62,338 nucleotides of DNA, taken from positions 1-62,338 of the forward strand of contig JACQGN010000031.1 in the NCBI GenBank assembly GCA_016199545.1, read 5' to 3'. Below the pieces are notes generated by a model. It saw only the letters and a list, made by a program, of their open reading frames with translations. It did no database searches and was not told where the DNA came from. The DNA is from Betaproteobacteria bacterium (GTDB taxonomy: Bacteria > Pseudomonadota > Gammaproteobacteria > Burkholderiales > SG8-41). Below, one piece after another: positions 11,397-37,375 of the stretch. Positions within the stretch are counted from its first letter, which is position 1; each line of letters starts with the position of its first letter. A program made the position numbers and the translations under genes.

Positions 11397-12212
11397 ATGA
11401 ATGCTCCCGGAACCGTAGTGCAAACGCTGACCGAGAAGCTGGTCGCCCGCAAGGAAGGCGCGATCGGCTGGATCATCTTCAACAATCCCGCCCGCCACAA
11501 TGCGGTCTCGCTCGAGATGTGGCAGTCGCTGCCCATGGTGCTCGACGCTTACGTGCAGGATCCCGAAGTGCGGGTCATCATCCTCAAGGGGGAAGGGGAG
11601 AAAGCATTCATCTCGGGCGCCGACATCTCCCAGTTCAAGGAGAAGCGTTCGAGCGAGGCGGCGTCCAAACTCTACAACGATACCGGTGAAGCCGCGGCCG
11701 CCGCGCTGCGCGGCTGCCCCAAGCCCACCATCGCCATGATCCGCGGCTACTGCATCGGCGGCGGCACGGGCACCGCGATCAACTGCGACATCCGCATCGC
11801 CGCGGACGACGCGCGCTTCGGCGTGCCGGCGGCGAAACTCGGCCTGGGCTACCGCTTCGCCGGCATCAGCCGCCTCGCCACGCTGGTGGGACCCGCGTAC
11901 ACGGCGGAGATTTTCTTCAGCGCGCGGCAGTTCACGGCGCAGGAAGCGCTGCACATGGGGCTCGTCAACCGGGTGGTGCCGGTTGCGGAGCTGGAAGCGA
12001 CGGTGCTGCAACTCGCGCAAACCCTGGCGGTCAATGCGCCGCTCACGATCGCGGCGGTGAAGCGCGCGCTGATCGAGTTTCACAAGGACCCGGCTGTGCG
12101 TGATCTCGACCTGTGCCAGAAGCTGATCGACGACTGTTTCGCGAGCGAGGACTACAAGGAAGGCCAGACCGCGTTCATGGAAAAACGCAAACCCGTGTTC
12201 AGGGGCCGCTGA
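11397..12212 (+). CDS. Enoyl-CoA hydratase/isomerase (crotonase) family protein
   Basis: WIIFNNPARHNAVSLEMW...ILKGEGEKAFISGADISQF...IRGYCIGGG is the crotonase oxyanion-hole pattern. Confidence 0.85.
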   Translation: MNAPGTVVQTLTEKLVARKEGAIGWIIFNNPARHNAVSLEMWQSLPMVLDAYVQDPEVRVIILKGEGEKAFISGADISQFKEKRSSEAASKLYNDTGEAAAAALRGCPKPTIAMIRGYCIGGGTGTAINCDIRIAADDARFGVPAAKLGLGYRFAGISRLATLVGPAYTAEIFFSARQFTAQEALHMGLVNRVVPVAELEATVLQLAQTLAVNAPLTIAAVKRALIEFHKDPAVRDLDLCQKLIDDCFASEDYKEGQTAFMEKRKPVFRGR

Positions 12213-30557: not shown

Positions 30558-31913
30558 ATGTTCGATAAGCTGAATGCAAGCGGAGTCTCCACCCTGGACC
30601 TGGAGTTTGCGCCGGCGTTGCTCAGGATGCAGCGTGAGGCGCCCACACCGCTGCCGCGCATCGTGGCCTGCGCGCTGCTTGGCCTCCTGACGGTGACGCT
30701 GGCGTGGGCCGCGATCGGGCAACTCGATGTGGTCGCGGTTGCACAGGGAAAAATCGTGCCGCAAAGCTTTCTCAAGATCGTACAGCCGGCCGAGCAGGGC
30801 ATCGTGCGCGAAATCCTGGTGAAGGATGGCGATCTCGTGGAAGCCGGACAGGTGCTGGTGCGCATGGATACGCGCCTGCAGGATGCGGACCGAAAAGTCG
30901 TGGAGAACGACCTCGAATTGCGGGAGCTGCAGTTGCGCCGCATCGACGCGGAACTTGCGGGCACTCCGCTGAAACAGCACCCAGGGGCCTCGCCCGGCTC
31001 GTTTGCGCAGGTTGAAGCGCAGTACCAGGCCCGCCGCCAGGCGTATCTGGATGCCGTCGGCGCCGAACGCGCGCTCCTCGTGAAGTCGCAGCAGGAGCTG
31101 CAGGTCGCGACGGAAGTGGAAAGCAAGCTCAGGCAAACCGTTCCGATTTACCGCGAGCAGGCACACGGCTGGGATCAGCTCGCCAGGGAAGGGTTCGCGG
31201 GAAAATTGATGGCGCTGGAACGCCAGCGCCTGTACATCGAGAACGAACAGGATCTGCGCGCCCAGGCCTACAACATCGAGAGCCTGAAGGCGAGCGTCGC
31301 GCAATCGGAGCAGCGGCTGGCGCAGATCACCTCGAACTACCGGCAGCAATTGCAGAACGAGCGGGTGGAGGCGGACGCCCACCGGCATCGCCTGCGCCAG
31401 GAACTCGCCAAGCACCAGCACCGCTCGCAGTTGCTCGAGCTGCGTGCCCCACAGGCCGGCGTCGTCAAGGATCTCGCCACGCATACGCCCGGAACCGTGG
31501 TGGCGCCGGGCACGATCCTGCTCACACTGGTGCCCAGGGAAGAACCGCTTGTCGCCGAAGTGTGGGTGCGTAACGCCGACGCCGGTTTCGTGCAGCCGGC
31601 ACAAAAGACCCGAATCAAGCTTGCCGCGTATCCGTTCCAGAAGTACGGCATGCTGGAGGGCAGGGTGCAGCACGTGAGCGCGGATGCGCAGGACAGGGCT
31701 AACGATGCCGGCGAGGCACGGCAGTTTCAGGACGCGGCGTATCGCGCGCTGATCGACCTTGAGGCTGCGTTCCTGGAACACCAGGGCACGCGCCTTGCGC
31801 TGGTTCCGGGCATGCTGGTCAACGCCGAGATCCACCTGGGCACGCGCAGCGTGCTGGAATACCTGCTTTCACCAGTGCAGAAAGTCGCCCATGAGGCGGG
31901 ACGGGAGAGATAG
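30558..31913 (+). CDS. Type I secretion membrane fusion protein (HlyD family)
   Basis: GAAGGAGGG RBS. Single N-terminal TM helix (RIVACALLGLLTVTLAWAAIG). Lipoyl-like motif GKIVPQSFLKIVQPAEQGIVREILVKDGDLVEAGQVLVRMD. Long coiled coil and a C-terminal beta-barrel (GMLVNAEIHLGTRSVLEYLLSP). Confidence 0.9.
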   Translation: MFDKLNASGVSTLDLEFAPALLRMQREAPTPLPRIVACALLGLLTVTLAWAAIGQLDVVAVAQGKIVPQSFLKIVQPAEQGIVREILVKDGDLVEAGQVLVRMDTRLQDADRKVVENDLELRELQLRRIDAELAGTPLKQHPGASPGSFAQVEAQYQARRQAYLDAVGAERALLVKSQQELQVATEVESKLRQTVPIYREQAHGWDQLAREGFAGKLMALERQRLYIENEQDLRAQAYNIESLKASVAQSEQRLAQITSNYRQQLQNERVEADAHRHRLRQELAKHQHRSQLLELRAPQAGVVKDLATHTPGTVVAPGTILLTLVPREEPLVAEVWVRNADAGFVQPAQKTRIKLAAYPFQKYGMLEGRVQHVSADAQDRANDAGEARQFQDAAYRALIDLEAAFLEHQGTRLALVPGMLVNAEIHLGTRSVLEYLLSPVQKVAHEAGRER

Positions 31914-31916
31914 CCT

Positions 31917-32390
31917 GTGACTGCTGCGCCGCGGGTGCGCATCGCGCTCGGCCCCTCGCGCATCCTGGCGGCTGTGTTGAGCCTGGCGCACGCCCTGGCG
32001 TTGGCTGTGATTCTCATCGTCACCATACCCGTCTGGGCGAAGCTTCTGGTGGGATCGGTAATCGCGGCGAGTTGCGCCTGGTCGATCTGCCACGCAGGAC
32101 TGCTACGCACCGCGCACGCAATCATCGAACTGGTAATCGGGGAGGGCGGGCGAGTCTCCTACCGTGACCGCACCGGGACGTGGCAAGAGGTGCGGATACT
32201 CAATTCGAGCTTCGTCGCACCGTGGCTCACAGTGTTGAATCTGCGCGCGGAGGGTTCACGGTTTGCCCGGCAGGTGGTCATTCTGCCGGACAGCGTGGAC
32301 GCGGACTCTTTTCGCCGGCTGAGGGTGCTGCTGCGCTGGGCACGAACGGCGCCGGGTGCGCCGTCGGAGCCTTCTAGTACTCGGGGTTAG
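31917..32390 (+). CDS. Two-TM membrane protein resembling the CptA/YgfX family
   Basis: GTG start 3 nt after the hlyD stop. Two N-terminal TM helices. The C-terminal VVILPDSVDADSFRRLRVLLRW resembles the E. coli YgfX tail WLAADSMDEAEWRDLRRILL. The family call rests on remembered motifs only. Confidence 0.45.
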   Translation: MTAAPRVRIALGPSRILAAVLSLAHALALAVILIVTIPVWAKLLVGSVIAASCAWSICHAGLLRTAHAIIELVIGEGGRVSYRDRTGTWQEVRILNSSFVAPWLTVLNLRAEGSRFARQVVILPDSVDADSFRRLRVLLRWARTAPGAPSEPSSTRG

Positions 32391-32652
32391 GTTCGACGCC
32401 GACGCCGGTATAGGCGCGCACGTAAGCATAGAGCAGGCGCTCGGCTTCCTCGCGGTTCGCGCACTCCGTCTTCTCGGGTTTGGCCGGGTGGGGCGCCCCT
32501 TCGGCGAGGCGGTAGAAGTGGCTCACCGCCCACGAGTACTTGACCGTGGCGTCACCGCCCATGCGTTCGCACAACCGCCCTTTGACCTTGGTGTTCCCCT
32601 TCAGCATGGTGAACACGTACTCGATCAGCACTTTTTCGACGACCTTATACAT
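32374..32652 (-). CDS. Small hypothetical protein (92 aa)
   Basis: AAGGAG RBS before the ATG at 32652. Very high GC3. Its 3' end overlaps the convergent 31917..32390 ORF by 17 nt. Confidence 0.6.
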   Translation of the reverse strand: MYKVVEKVLIEYVFTMLKGNTKVKGRLCERMGGDATVKYSWAVSHFYRLAEGAPHPAKPEKTECANREEAERLLYAYVRAYTGVGVEPNPEY

Positions 32653-32840
32653 TGCGTGCGACTCCTTGTTTTTGCGGTAGCGGCTGTCAGGGCGAAGTAT
32701 AGCTTGGGCGCCGGGGCGGGCGCTGGTGGAGGCCACCTACTAGAGGCACACCGCGACTGGTGCTCGGCGGAATAGGATGCTATTTAACATAATATACATT
32801 ATACGCACTAACGCATTCCGCACTATAATAGCAACACGAC

Positions 32841-33659
32841 CTAGGTTTGAACCTCACTTCCCCGCCGAAGGCGCTCTCGGAGCCCCTCTAGCGATGCCTC
32901 CCTAGCATCCACAGGCCTAACCCGCCGAATCACCCTCAGCGGCCGAACAGGCAGCCCGAATTTCTGGCTGGCACGCGCATCGATCTCAAACATTGCGTCG
33001 TAAAAGAACTTACTCTCGCCAAGAAAACCCCCAAGAACTGCCCCAACACGTTTACCCACTTTGTCTTTTAGAACAGGCACTCTAGCCCCAGCACGCTTAC
33101 CGATGATTCCCCGGTTATGCACGATCGCATTCCTTAACTCCACTAGAACCACTGCCTTCTCCTCATCGTGTCGCACCGAGAACAGCTGAAATCCCATCTC
33201 CTTGAACAAGTATTCCGACAGCTCCCTAAAGCCAAGATAGGACAACCTCTCGACCCGTTTCTCCGCTAGAGCCCTTCTCAGTTCATCCATCGTTTGAAAC
33301 TGCAACACGAACTCAACACGCTCTTGCTCAGATGAGCGCAACATTTCAGGCTTCGCGCCGTAAACCAGCGCCAGCAACTCTGTCACGTATGTCAGAACAT
33401 TGTCCACCACACGACATACAAGCATTTCATTCACCAACTCGTTATGCGAATCCATTTCCCCCACTAGATACCCATCTGCCGCCTGAACCTTGCCATTCTT
33501 CGAGCGTGCCCCCATGTCGGTGAAAAGCACAATCTGCGACTCCACGACGAAAACATAGAACTCAAGCAGCCTCATCTGTTCCGCGAAGAAACGCTCGCCG
33601 GCCTCAGTAACGAGCGGCTCTACCGCGCGGCCCGACCCGCTAACCTTTGCCTCACCCAT
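32841..33659 (-). CDS. HEPN-motif protein (MAE_28990/RiboL-PSP-like HEPN candidate)
   Basis: Mostly helical-looking 272-aa protein. It has a canonical Rx4H motif, ELRNAIVHNRG (R176...H181, nt 33117-33134). It lies in the low-GC segment (28/60 GC in the line starting at 33001). Confidence 0.55.
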   Translation of the reverse strand: MGEAKVSGSGRAVEPLVTEAGERFFAEQMRLLEFYVFVVESQIVLFTDMGARSKNGKVQAADGYLVGEMDSHNELVNEMLVCRVVDNVLTYVTELLALVYGAKPEMLRSSEQERVEFVLQFQTMDELRRALAEKRVERLSYLGFRELSEYLFKEMGFQLFSVRHDEEKAVVLVELRNAIVHNRGIIGKRAGARVPVLKDKVGKRVGAVLGGFLGESKFFYDAMFEIDARASQKFGLPVRPLRVIRRVRPVDAREASLEGLRERLRRGSEVQT

Positions 33660-33668
33660 TTCTTAACC

Positions 33669-33860
33669 TTATGGCCTCAAGAAAAGTTCCACCAAAGAAG
33701 GCACAACACTCTCAATTCGCTCCCCAGCCTCAAAAAGTAATTGATCCGCCACCCACTGCACAACAACGAAGCCGACAGCCCTAAATAAGCCGTCCAGTTC
33801 TTCGTTGTCGTACTTCGTGCCTCCGGGACTGATCGCATAGTCTCTACCGTTCGCACCCAC
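33669..33860 (-). CDS. Possible small ORF between the AbiC-like and HEPN genes
   Basis: Protein-like 63-aa translation (YDNEELDGLFRAVGFVVVQWVADQLLFEAGERIESVVPSLVELF), but with a GTG start and no RBS. It is in the same frame as the HEPN gene, separated by TAA GGT TAA GAA. Confidence 0.25.
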   Translation of the reverse strand: MGANGRDYAISPGGTKYDNEELDGLFRAVGFVVVQWVADQLLFEAGERIESVVPSLVELFLRP

Positions 33861-33894
33861 CGGCGCGCGCCCGCGTTGACTGCGCCGTTAAGGC

Positions 33895-34722
33895 TCATTT
33901 CGCCTTTGCCTTAGCCCTTTCCGCCTCTCGCGCCTGAACACGAGCCCGGACCTCTGCGATCGCTTCGCCAAACATGATTCCCGGAAACAATTTTTCTGTG
34001 GCCTCAAACCCTTTCAGTTTCAGCAAATCGCGTCCAGGCTCCGTGATTAAAAGGTGAGTTGCGAGCAACTTTGCCGTCCCAGAGTAGTGTCGAATAATTG
34101 GTATGCTCAAAAGTGCATCGGGCGCGAAGTAAACGCGCTGAATTGAGGAGCCAGCCGCTGGAAGAACTACGGAATCAGTTGCACCTTCATACATTTCCAC
34201 CGCCGACACAAAGCGGTTCAGAAATTCTTCGCATCCACTATCGATTGGCAGCCATTTCGTATGCGCCTCAAAGACCGCATTTGGGTCGCTACCCTCCGTA
34301 ATGGTATTCCATAATTTCATCCCGTTCATGTATGCAGTAGGCAGATCGGTGATAGAGCGCACGCCCTGAACCGAGCCCCGAGAGAGCGATGCATCGTATT
34401 GATCCAGTATTCGCGCCACCTGTTCTAGGGCAGCGTACTTTCCTATCTTCTTCCATTCATTCCGTTGCTGCTCCATCGATTGCCGCTGCATCGCCAATTC
34501 CTGGCGCTGTAGCCTCAGCTCTTGACCTTGCATAAAGTACGCCGCGACCAGCCAAATAAAAGCGAGCGTGCCGGCGAATCCGGAAAAGAAATCACCTATT
34601 TGACTTAGTGTTTCAAGCTTTGGCGCGATGACCAGCGCGACAATGCCGGCCAATATCACTATGGCGGTGAGTGCCCAAGGCCACCATCTTTCCATCGTCG
34701 CGCGATTCATGAGCCCTAACAC
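33895..34722 (-). CDS. Two-TM protein with AbiC-like (putative abortive infection) N-terminal module
   Basis: The segment TM1, GDFFSGFAGTLAFIWLVAAYFMQGQELRLQRQEL (nt 34495-34599) matches the remembered putAbiC pattern: GD(F/Y)xGG...TM helix...Q..EL...Q. It is followed by a soluble domain and a Lys/Ala-rich tail. Confidence 0.5.
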   Translation of the reverse strand: MLGLMNRATMERWWPWALTAIVILAGIVALVIAPKLETLSQIGDFFSGFAGTLAFIWLVAAYFMQGQELRLQRQELAMQRQSMEQQRNEWKKIGKYAALEQVARILDQYDASLSRGSVQGVRSITDLPTAYMNGMKLWNTITEGSDPNAVFEAHTKWLPIDSGCEEFLNRFVSAVEMYEGATDSVVLPAAGSSIQRVYFAPDALLSIPIIRHYSGTAKLLATHLLITEPGRDLLKLKGFEATEKLFPGIMFGEAIAEVRARVQAREAERAKAKAK

Positions 34723-34770
34723 TCACGCCCACTGGCACGCATTACAAAGCGCAGCCATCCCAGTCGCCCA

Positions 34771-35619
34771 TCAAAACCATCCGATCGCATAGGGCAGCTG
34801 CTCTAGCAACATCTGTCGCCCCGGCTCAGTTCCCCATTGCCAGCAAAGTCGAGACTGCATTTCGATCTTCATATCCTCAAAAAGGCGATGGTTCGGAATA
34901 GCCGGAAACAAATGCCGTGCGGCAATAAACGACGCTTCGTCCAGCGAGTCGAAATAAGTTGGCTGCTCCCGCGGATCATCAAAGCTCCTGATGACCTCCC
35001 CAATTACCGTAAGGGCTGCGACTACATGCACACAGTCCATGATAGAAAACTCATAGCTTTCCATAGAAAGGTGTGCGGCCGATCGATCCGCATACTGCTT
35101 CAGCAGCCCGATCCGGCGGCCGAGTGGAGCCGCAGCACTCAACAGCGCCTTATCTGTTTTTGCGCAATCCCGGAAAATCGACCTAAGTAGGTGAAGCGCG
35201 GCAAGCGCTTCTTCACACCTTCGGCTCGAACGCGTCGACCAGTACTCCGCAACTCTTTCTAACATCTCATCCGAGTTCTTCGCGAAGTTTGCACCGGTTA
35301 GGCCATTGGCGCCGTGGTCGAAGGCCTTTCTGCACGAAAGAGCAACCGTACTGCTCGCAGAGAACTCGATCGCGTGCTTCAGGACCACGCCGGGATACCC
35401 TTCCACCGCGCAAGCTTGATCACGATGCGCATTTGCTCCATGAAACAGATAGAACGCCGGCAACGCAAGCGTAGCCCGCGACTTGACTCCACGAAGGAAG
35501 TGAATTGCCCGTCCCAATGGATCCAACTGCATCGGCGCGCACCGCGGCTTTAATCGTTCCGTGCGCTCTGCCAATGCGCGCTCTGCGCTCTTATCCACTG
35601 AAAAACTTATCTTTGCCAT
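34771..35619 (-). CDS. Hypothetical protein (282 aa), first gene of the low-GC operon
   Basis: Protein-like, helix-rich sequence. No family was recognised. The ATG at 35619 (MAKISFSVDK) is preferred over the track start at 35664. Confidence 0.6.
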   Translation of the reverse strand: MAKISFSVDKSAERALAERTERLKPRCAPMQLDPLGRAIHFLRGVKSRATLALPAFYLFHGANAHRDQACAVEGYPGVVLKHAIEFSASSTVALSCRKAFDHGANGLTGANFAKNSDEMLERVAEYWSTRSSRRCEEALAALHLLRSIFRDCAKTDKALLSAAAPLGRRIGLLKQYADRSAAHLSMESYEFSIMDCVHVVAALTVIGEVIRSFDDPREQPTYFDSLDEASFIAARHLFPAIPNHRLFEDMKIEMQSRLCWQWGTEPGRQMLLEQLPYAIGWF

Positions 35620-36415
35620 GTCCGTATGATAACGACCGCAGAAACCCGCAGACAAAACTACCACCTACCGGCCACACGTCCAGCATACTACGCTGAACAC
35701 CCGCAGGTAATCGAGAAAATCACCGACCAGGAAATCAAGAACACGCCCGGAGACCGCTCGCCAGCCCGCCCGCCGCTGCGCGGCGTGCCGGGCACCCCTC
35801 GGCGCGCCGGCGCCGGGCGCAAACCCGTAATCAAGAAACGAGAAGGACGCGGAGGCCGAAGCCTGCGACGAACGCGAGGCCGATGAAGCCGACCCCGTAG
35901 CAGATCACGCCCACGACCTCGAGGACCCGAACGCTCACAGATCACCCCGCAGCACCATCTGGCGCGCATTCCACCAGCGCCGGTCCGCATCGAACTGCAA
36001 AAGCGGCCGTAACCTGGGCGCCGGTTTCCCCGAACGCTTACGCGGTTCACAGGGCAACCACGGAACAACGCGCACCTGCGGGACGTACGGGCATTCATCT
36101 GACGCCCGCGGCCGCTGTGAGAGGTTGAATGGGCGACCGCCAGATCTCCATTATGTCGGTGCTGATTAGAGAAAGCAGTTACAGCATGGTGAAAGCTGTC
36201 GGGCTGCATGCTCGTTTGCGGCCGCCGCTCGATCGGTGTAAAGTCTCTCGAAGGAAACGAAGGGGGGGAAGCCTTTGGATCGCTATTTCCATTTCTGAAG
36301 CGTTGTATTGCCCCAGTAGTGCGATTGCTTTCAGGCGCCCTGTTCGATCCATGGTACGTATTCGCAACGTTGGCCAATCCACCATAAATCTGCGCTCACG
36401 AGAATCGACCGATAC

Positions 36416-36697
36416 ATGAAACGTCATCTCATCGTCTTCTACACCTTGGTCATCGTGCTCATCCTCTCGGGCCGTTACGCATGGACGCATTGCGAATGGG
36501 ACTGGGTCACGCGCATCAGCTCGGTCGGCGTCATTCTCGGGATCGTGATCGAGCGCTGGAATGTCCTCATCGGGAAGCCGGAGCCTATCCCCGATGCTGC
36601 CACCGGGCGGCTGCCTATCATCCTCCTCTGTATCGGGACCTTCATCGCCGGCTTTGGGGAACTGCTCGGCAAGACCGTATTCGGCTGCCTGCGCTAG
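36416..36697 (+). CDS. Small membrane protein (93 aa)
   Basis: High GC3 and three hydrophobic segments. Its stop codon lies inside the 36695-36730 hairpin. Confidence 0.55.
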   Translation: MKRHLIVFYTLVIVLILSGRYAWTHCEWDWVTRISSVGVILGIVIERWNVLIGKPEPIPDAATGRLPIILLCIGTFIAGFGELLGKTVFGCLR

Positions 36698-36730
36698 GAG
36701 TTTGTCGGACTTAGGCTCGACAAACTCCTA
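36695..36730. terminator. Bidirectional hairpin between convergent genes
   Basis: Perfect 13-bp stem TAGGAGTTTGTCG / CGACAAACTCCTA with a 10-nt loop. The two arms contain the stop codons of the + and - strand genes respectively. Confidence 0.6.
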
Positions 36731-37375
36731 GTCCTTCGCGCCGGCCCTCACCAGGATTTCAGAGACTTCCTTCATCCCGCGCTCGCGCGCGACTTCCAGC
36801 GCCGTATAGCCGAGCGGAGTGCGGTAGTTGACGTCCGCACCATGCTCCATGAGCAGCAGCACCATGGGCAGATGTCCCTCGCGCGCGGCCATCATCAGTG
36901 CCGTCGTGCCATTTTCGGCTGCTGCATCCACCTTGGCGCCACGACTGATCAGCTTCCGAGCTATATCCAGATGGCTGTTCGCCGCTGCATACATGAGCGG
37001 TGTCCAGCCGGACGGGTTCACATCGGACCCGTGCGCGAGCAACATCTCGACGATCTCCGTGTGCCCGCGCAACGCGGCCAGCATCAGAGCCGTCTCACCA
37101 TAGGCGTTCCGTGCGTCCACTCGCGGCTTGGCCACAAGCAGGGTCCTGACGATATTCGGTTTTCCCTCCTTGACGGCAAGCATCAGAAGGGACTCGCCTT
37201 CACGCGTCACGCTGTTGACCTCAAATCCGCGGTTAAGCAGCGAAGCGACCGTGCGGGTGTCGTCCAGGTCGATGGCCCGGATCATGTCGTCGTAAGCGTC
37301 GGCGCGCGCCCCTCCAGCAACGAAAGTGAGCGCGCTGAAGAGCAGAATAATCCTAATGTGTCGTATGATGAACAT
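36728..37375 (-). CDS. Secreted ankyrin-repeat protein
   Basis: Signal peptide MFIIRHIRIILLFSALTFVAGGARA. About 5 ANK repeats (G.TALM.AA..GH...V..LL..GA.VN). Confidence 0.85.
   Translation of the reverse strand: MFIIRHIRIILLFSALTFVAGGARADAYDDMIRAIDLDDTRTVASLLNRGFEVNSVTREGESLLMLAVKEGKPNIVRTLLVAKPRVDARNAYGETALMLAALRGHTEIVEMLLAHGSDVNPSGWTPLMYAAANSHLDIARKLISRGAKVDAAAENGTTALMMAAREGHLPMVLLLMEHGADVNYRTPLGYTALEVARERGMKEVSEILVRAGAKD

Follow-up and report, generated by a model that had tools for sequence, protein, structure and literature searches.

In the window analyzed here (the whole 62,338-bp contig of a Betaproteobacteria metagenome-assembled genome), three consecutive minus-strand genes, designated A, B and C, occupy a segment of low GC content. 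The explanation favored with moderate confidence is that this segment is a small horizontally acquired islet carrying three evolutionarily independent, stand-alone conflict-type genes of Abi-like or toxin-like character, and not a three-component system. This reading is supported by the foreign composition of the segment, by the failure of the three genes to co-occur in other loci, and by the low-GC, mobile and defense contexts in which members of their families were found. The genes would be of the kind that travels in defense islands and integrative elements: C is very probably a divergent HEPN-type ribonuclease (RNase), B a putative membrane protein with an AbiC-type N-terminal module, and A a candidate enzyme.

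Composition of the islet and distribution of its genes

The three same-strand open reading frames (ORFs) of the first-pass annotation were all present on the minus strand where it had placed them (Table 1), and the corresponding proteins bear consecutive locus tags in the NCBI record (HY322_02205, 02210 and 02215). The islet segment is compositionally foreign. The GC content of positions 32737-35700 was 53.7% vs. 62.3% in the remaining window, and the GC content at third codon positions (GC3) was 0.59, 0.56 and 0.61 in A, B and C, respectively, vs. 0.71-0.85 in every flanking gene. The sharp drop in composition had originally been noted from hand counts, which proved exact (28/60 at 33001-33060 and 41/60 at 12001-12060), and the AT-rich junction reported downstream of C was likewise recovered. 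The two small ORFs just outside the islet can be regarded as native because of their high GC3 (0.85 at 32374-32652 and 0.82 at 36416-36697), so the foreign block extends from ~32.74 to 35.65 kb. Its location between a type I secretion system (T1SS) locus and the ankyrin-tatD-holB block was also borne out, HlyD and the ankyrin protein being identified by Pfam, and tatD and holB from the ORF translations alone. No integrase or transposase remained in the islet, no tRNA gene was located near it, and no Rfam match was obtained in the 30-40 kb part of the window; the only flanking repeats were imperfect ones of 15-17 nt at 32700-32730 and 35970-36024, which is at chance level.

The distribution of the three genes was assessed in 119 loci, all of which were searched with A, B and C by tblastn. 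For A, 12 loci came from GTDB contigs with one genome per species and 5 from exact-protein look-ups; for B, 8 came from look-ups and 8 were N-terminal relatives on viral contigs; for C, 5 came from look-ups, 80 from metagenomes and 1 from a viral contig. A homologue of A was found in 17 loci, of B in 16 and of C in 86, and none of the 119 loci contained two of the three genes. Clustering of the neighboring ORFs, all against all, revealed no conserved neighbor for A (12 genome loci) or for C (~80 metagenome loci), and only integrases recurred among the clustered ORFs. The window's neighbors were absent around the 71%-identical A homologue on a 45-kb betaproteobacterial contig, on the downstream side of the 82%-identical B homologue, and on both sides of the 74%-identical B homologue. 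The families differed in size (B, 12 sequences; A, more than 236; C, 4,534 cluster representatives) and in the identity of the nearest homologue (~80% for A and B, 47% for C), and GC skew was -0.33 in C vs. -0.07 to -0.19 in A and B. Taken together, the lack of co-occurrence, the lack of a conserved neighbor, the unequal family sizes and identities and the change in GC skew mean that a three-gene system A+B+C is not supported; A, B and C are independent cargo genes, and their three families are independently distributed. The first-pass annotation had read the trio as one candidate defense operon and had itself named cross-genome co-occurrence as the check on that idea, and on this check the operon was lost. 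In this case, a system could not be predicted from the proximity of the genes and their common low GC in a single genome; they are stacked passengers.

The homologues also tended to lie in DNA of low GC content, which was below that of the distal flanks in 12 of 13 loci for A, 4 of 5 for B and all 15 of the longer loci for C. None of the three genes was found in GenBank phages, and the only match in PLSDB was a C homologue of 27.5% identity, carried by a Parageobacillus plasmid; in IMG/VR, A was not found and C was found once. Within the window, A and B are separated by 48-60 bp on the same strand, and B and C by a spacer of 235 bp. Since no terminator was predicted within the A-B-C block, in which promoter-like sites occurred only at chance level, the three genes may be co-transcribed here; such co-transcription would reflect chance stacking rather than any functional need.

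Table 1. Positions of the islet genes, their motifs and the flanking features in the window
Feature	Position	Strand	Description	Source
Gene A	34771-35619	-	282 aa from ATG; alternative GTG at 35664 gives 297 aa	ORF table
Gene B	33895-34722	-	275 aa; in NCBI 271 aa from ATG at 34710 (4 codons later)	ORF table
Gene C	32841-33659	-	272 aa	ORF table
Low-GC islet	32737-35650		between native high-GC genes	composition profile, GC and GC3 per gene
AT-rich junction	32770-32840		25/71 GC (35%); left islet edge, downstream of C
C motif ELRNAIVHNRG (E174, R176, N177, H181, N182, R183)	33108-33140	-	residues 174-184; putative HEPN RNase active site
Gene B architecture			two N-terminal transmembrane (TM) helices, coiled coil, soluble C-terminal domain	ORF, alignment, hydropathy
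B N-terminal module	34453-34686	-	TM1, GDFFSG-TM2, ELRLQRQEL coiled coil	translation
A motif KQYADRSAAHLS	35065-35100	-	end of helix 165-181; Q175 and H183 invariant, R179 in 90/103
63-aa ORF	33669-33860	-	in the 235-bp B-C spacer; ends 9 bp before the C start codon
HlyD	30564-31913		T1SS	Pfam-confirmed
CptA-like membrane protein gene	31917-32390	+	between HlyD and the islet	Pfam Cpta_toxin, E = 5.6e-17
92-aa ORF	32374-32652	-	GC3 0.85; between the CptA-like gene and the islet; no family match
93-aa membrane ORF	36416-36697		GC3 0.82; convergent with the ankyrin gene
Ankyrin protein	36728-37375			Pfam-confirmed

The protein families of C, B and A

Judging from the motif and the predicted structure of its product, gene C very probably encodes a divergent RNase of the HEPN type from an unnamed family, although membership at the level of fold is unproven. 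In the published definition of HEPN proteins (PMC3710099), helix 3 ends with an Rx4-6H motif whose R is directly followed by a polar residue (N, D or H), and helix 2 contributes an acidic residue. The product of C has this motif in the form Rx4H, with a polar residue after the conserved R. The sequence ELRNAIVHNRG, which the first-pass annotation had singled out as a HEPN catalytic motif, behaves as such a motif would: E174, R176, H181 and R183 were kept in 15/15 homologues obtained from a word index, and in the alignment of 140 relatives R176 was found in 140/140, H181 in 139/139, N177 in 137/140 (H in the other three), N182 in 126 and R183 in 131. The suggested check of Rx4H conservation was therefore positive in every homologue examined. 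Position 86 was occupied by D in 129 of the 140 sequences and by E in 7. In the AlphaFold2 (AF2) model, which was all-helical (predicted local distance difference test score (pLDDT) = 83), the motif was located at the C-terminal end of helix 163-181, which ends at H181 and is followed by a loop, and D86 was within the long helix 60-102. Among 1.84 billion cluster representatives, a profile search recovered 4,534 members of the family at E ≤ 1e-3, including 783 at E ≤ 1e-30. The PADLOC model RTasHEPN, for HEPN proteins associated with reverse transcriptase (RT), matched 27 of the 140 members (best E = 6.5e-6), and a few members matched the Csx1, CARF_HEPN, PrrC, Cas13b or Csm6 models, all of which contain HEPN domains. 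A Pfam scan of the 15-member set gave one weak match (HEPN_Cthe2314, E = 0.056), and the PDB sequence-profile search with the C family was empty. If these assignments are correct, C would be a metal-independent RNase in which R176 and H181, like their counterparts in other HEPN enzymes, probably pair across a dimer, and which, once activated, would cleave cellular or phage RNA and cause growth arrest or abortive infection.

Gene B encodes a protein with two hydrophobic segments, at residues ~13-40 and 45-65 according to hydropathy, followed by QGQELRLQRQELAMQRQ and a soluble region of ~170 residues. A GDFFSG-TM-coiled-coil arrangement had been associated with putative AbiC proteins in the first-pass annotation, and this likeness stands for the N-terminal part of B, which is shared with putAbiC proteins, but not for the protein as a whole: Pfam PF16872 (putAbiC) was found in 0/12 of the B-family sequences obtained (E ≤ 0.1). 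Membership of B in putAbiC was rejected on this ground, only the N-terminal module being in common. The weak Pfam matches of the family, all below curated cut-offs, were to DUF6611 in 4/12 (best E = 1.6e-4) and to SLATT_1 in 2/12 (E = 0.061, 13.8 bits vs. a cut-off of 26.3). The C-terminal domain of ~170 residues had no Pfam or PDB match, and the PDB profile search with the B family was empty. A scan of IMG/VR with the B-family alignment revealed eight proteins (L109-L116) sharing only TM2 and the coiled coil. The B-family profile matched them with E-values of 4e-13 to 6e-6 (Z set to 1e6), which are optimistic, as the candidates had been pre-selected by a pattern from the same region. In two of the eight, PF16872 was recognized in the C-terminal domain (L113, E = 6e-19; L116, E = 2.5e-22). 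These matches indicate that the TM2 and coiled-coil module of B is common to putAbiC-domain proteins and that the C-terminal domain differs. Lactococcal AbiC has been described as a two-TM protein with a soluble domain, whose mechanism is unknown (PMC13064643). B would be an AbiC/AbiP-like inner-membrane protein whose family-specific cytoplasmic C-terminal domain may sense or bind a target, with the TM and coiled-coil module anchoring the protein or disturbing the membrane.

Homologues of B adjoin integrases, or methyltransferase, ParB and SNase genes; in two loci (L003 and L008), what lies upstream of B is an integrase gene or one transcribed divergently. On two contigs (L009, 2199-4105; L010, 153-2059), a 49%-identical B homologue overlaps the stop codon of an upstream gene by 4 bp and is followed by two integrase genes; the 361-aa product of this upstream gene weakly matches nucleoside 2-deoxyribosyltransferase (Nuc_deoxyrib_tr) at its N-terminus (E = 0.0015). 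On three others (L117, 388-1984; also L118 and L119), a gene for a 202-aa protein with the HEPN-like motif FRNKYAAH, for which no PDB sequence match was found, is located on the same strand 175 bp upstream of the 74%-identical B homologue. Both upstream proteins were considered as relatives of A and rejected, as no similarity of hidden Markov models (HMMs) was detected.

Gene A had been left as unassignable, and its product indeed had no Pfam, PADLOC or NCBIfam match, with 0/103 family members matching any PADLOC HEPN model; it is, however, no orphan, since more than 236 homologues were found, mainly in Burkholderiales and other Proteobacteria. Among 103 sequences, R43, R169, Q175, A182, H183, D214 and W260 were invariant, and R97, K98, D101, D195 and H198 were nearly so; this pattern of conservation suggests an enzyme. 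The AF2 model of A was all-helical (pLDDT = 92, predicted template modeling score = 0.88). In the motif KQYADRSAAHLS, the spacing R179-x3-H183 (Rx3H) does not fit the HEPN Rx4-6H, and R179 was replaced in 13/103 sequences, whereas H183 was retained in 103/103. Foldseek comparison of A with PDB and BFVD gave no match at E < 0.06, the integron HEPN protein 3jrt ranking 26th (E = 1.9), and the PDB sequence-profile search was empty. The structural comparison recommended at the first pass was thus run for A and C, and it gave no significant match for either. In UniProt or submitter records, the name "HEPN AbiU2-like domain-containing protein" is attached to some Burkholderia orthologues of A. This label was not reproduced: 0/32 members matched Pfam HEPN_AbiU2 (E ≤ 0.1), and two carriers of the name (P0125 and P0127) had no Pfam match at E ≤ 10, so the label is an unverified lead. 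The possibility that A and C are paralogous HEPN proteins was also rejected, since hhalign of the family profiles gave a probability below 1%. The product of A would be a soluble enzyme built around the invariant R43, R169, Q175, H183 and D214 and acting alone.

In Burkholderia, a homologue of A adjoins an integrase and a Prim-Pol/D5 element; others were found beside SIR2_2 and Tn7 TnsA/TnsB genes, and beside an IS1595 transposase together with PP2C and two kinase genes. In one lineage (L026, 7001-8763; L027, 4354-6116), a 70%-identical A homologue is followed by a gene that it overlaps by 10 bp and whose 307-aa product weakly matches HSDR_N (E = 0.0034), the pair lying near a 786-aa SIR2_2 gene and Tn7 TnsA/TnsB. 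In this lineage, A may have a local partner.

Relation to known systems and alternative explanations

A comparison with PADLOC-DB v2 gave no significant match for A, B or C, and the Pfam and NCBIfam scans, in which the flanking small ORFs were included, likewise pointed to no named defense system; the earlier statement that the trio cannot be mapped to one still applies. The product of C resembles stand-alone HEPN proteins (AbiJ, AbiV and AbiD/F, the RT-associated HEPN of DRT, PrrC, Csx1, Csm6 and Cas13) in its invariant Rx4H, in the N after the R, in the predicted position of the motif at a helix end and in the conserved acidic D86, which the model places in an upstream long helix. It also resembles them in being a solo gene in low-GC DNA and in having family members that match the PADLOC models RTasHEPN, Csx1, CARF_HEPN, PrrC, Cas13b and Csm6. 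It differs from them in the lack of a Pfam HEPN match or a Foldseek match to a solved HEPN structure and in the lack of a fused or adjacent RT, minimal nucleotidyltransferase (MNT), CARF or ATPase partner, and its ExRNxxxHNRG signature with the preceding helical region of ~160 residues defines a separate unnamed family. Similarly, B shares with lactococcal AbiC and putAbiC proteins (PF16872, AbiC/P group) a pair of N-terminal TM helices ahead of a soluble domain, and its TM2 and ELRLQRxEL coiled coil are detectably common to putAbiC-domain proteins, whereas the putAbiC domain itself is missing from B and from each of its 11 homologues. The N-terminal TM pair also recalls the SLATT two-TM effectors, and one B homologue is translationally coupled to the upstream gene with the weak Nuc_deoxyrib_tr match, but the SLATT_1 matches (2/12, E = 0.06) were far under the cut-off, and the window contains neither a SMODS nor a clear SLOG partner. 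For A, the invariant His just after a helix and the mostly conserved Arg ahead of it are reminiscent of HEPN_AbiU2, after which some Burkholderia orthologues are named; against this stand the Rx3H spacing, the replacement of Arg in 13/103, the absence of a Pfam match in 32 members including the two so named, the lack of any profile relation to C and the lack of a structural match. The genes are of familiar kinds, one for a solo HEPN-like protein and another for an AbiC-like membrane protein, carried in an acquired islet, while the families are undescribed.

Several results weigh against the reading of the islet as independent conflict genes. The neighborhoods were sampled with naive ORF calls and a summary Pfam scan only. 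The HEPN assignment of C is strained by the weak PADLOC match of the window protein itself (E = 0.022), by the absence of any Pfam family match at E ≤ 0.01 among the 140 members, and by the Foldseek comparison of the full-length model with PDB (best E = 0.38, no HEPN entry). No control mechanism, such as a solo RNase toxin would need, is visible for C. C is a solo gene whose 93 sampled neighbors were mostly ordinary metabolic genes (among them AbiTii 2, Abi_alpha 2 and GmrSD 1), and a 36%-identical relative is flanked by PspA/IM30 and AIM24 genes, with NfeD and flotillin genes upstream, in the same arrangement on three contigs (for example, L001, 7511-8377; L002, 7380-8246). The latter setting is a membrane-stress context and not a defense one, and it suggests that some members of the C family may have non-defense roles. 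Finally, the A-B gap of 48-60 bp and the coupling of a B homologue to a different upstream gene elsewhere leave room for an A-B unit.

Some of these results would fit genes that take no part in conflict, being either lineage-variable accessory genes with cellular roles (C, for instance, may function in RNA processing or the envelope-stress response) or functionless, decaying cargo of a lost mobile element. The PspA/AIM24/flotillin/NfeD cluster around the distant C homologue, the metabolic neighbors of C, the absence of a retained integrase or transposase and the near-absence of the genes from phages and plasmids (none in GenBank phages, one distant C homologue on a plasmid) are in accordance with this. 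It is nevertheless rated as rather unlikely: the ORFs are intact and their catalytic-looking residues strictly conserved, which argues for purifying selection, the families recur in low-GC patches and beside integrases, Tn7, SIR2, Abi and GmrSD genes, and HEPN and AbiC-like features are typical of conflict systems. The possibility that A and B form a two-gene unit, with C as an independent passenger and B pairing with interchangeable upstream soluble partners, was considered unlikely. Such a unit would be comparable to sensor-effector pairs whose effector has two TM helices, and it would be consistent with the short same-strand A-B spacing lacking a predicted terminator, with the 4-bp overlap in L009/L010, with the RNKYAAH motif of the protein encoded upstream in L117-119 next to the DRSAAH of A, and with the SLATT_1 and Nuc_deoxyrib_tr matches. 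However, every one of these domain matches is below curated cut-offs, a B homologue was present in 0/17 A loci, the upstream partners of B are homologous neither to each other nor to A, and in L003 and L008 the upstream gene is an integrase or a divergent gene. A broader proposal, in which the B family is the constant membrane part of a modular two-gene system with exchangeable partners and the C family is, separately, a new and very widespread single-gene HEPN system, is judged to be quite improbable; candidate partners of B under it may be A (DRSAAH), the 202-aa RNKYAAH protein and the coupled 361-aa deoxyribosyltransferase-like protein. Were its modular part true, it would amount to an undescribed defense architecture in which the AbiC-type two-TM module is the effector shared by varied soluble sensors or enzymes.

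For a single three-component anti-phage system of HEPN RNase, membrane effector or sensor and unknown partner, the common strand, short spacers, shared low GC and lack of a predicted internal terminator are set against the absence of any pair from the 119 loci, the great differences in family size (12, more than 236 and more than 4,500), the ~80% vs. 47% identities and the skew of C, and such a system is regarded as highly improbable. Hardly more credible is a toxin-antitoxin pair formed by C and the 63-aa ORF upstream of it. In its favor, this ORF ends 9 bp before the start of C, HEPN toxins often have small partners, and two other contigs also have small ORFs upstream of C homologues. On the other hand, tblastn found no match to the 63-aa ORF in any related locus, the 86 C loci included, no recurrent cluster of small ORFs adjoins C, and the ORF is unannotated in the NCBI record and has no family match in Pfam, PADLOC or NCBIfam. 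It is probably not a gene. An MNT-type partner was absent as well: no adjacent MNT was found for C in the window, and no conserved neighbor in the ~80 C loci.

The preferred reading of the islet, with three stand-alone genes, has several implications. If the assignments hold, three unnamed families join the candidate single-gene anti-phage or toxin proteins. The C family (more than 4,500 sequence clusters) has the sharp signature ExRNxxxHNRG, with neither a Pfam model nor a full-length PADLOC model and with weak matches of only some members to HEPN-domain models, and is therefore missed by defense-finding pipelines. In B, an AbiC-type two-TM and coiled-coil module would be reused with different cytoplasmic domains, which may offer a handle on the AbiC/AbiP mechanism, and A is a confidently modeled all-helical protein with no structural relative in PDB or BFVD. 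The C family and the modular AbiC-type membrane module are worth flagging for experimental screening, whereas the proposed operon is not a conserved unit.

Flanking regions and minor observations

On the left side of the islet, the CptA-like gene directly follows the HlyD gene of the T1SS, and an SdhE/CptB-like partner was not evident alongside it. The 92-aa ORF overlaps the 3' end of the CptA-like gene by 17 bp. On the right side, the region 35650-36400 is a GC-rich stretch of ~750 bp without a convincing gene, with a marked excess of A over T on the plus strand (AT skew up to 0.55); a hydrophobic 36-codon ORF (VLEVVGVICYGVGFIGLAFVAGFGL...) is located within it on the minus strand, at 35831-35941. 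At 36694-36731, between the 93-aa membrane ORF and the ankyrin gene, a 10-nt loop is enclosed by a perfect inverted repeat of 14 nt. This structure is probably a bidirectional terminator that escaped the terminator scan because it has no T-run. A second stretch of low GC content was observed at 20500-23500 (0.52-0.54 in 1-kb windows vs. a mean of 0.62), spanning the upstream region and the 5' end of a gene encoding a 3041-aa RTX protein.

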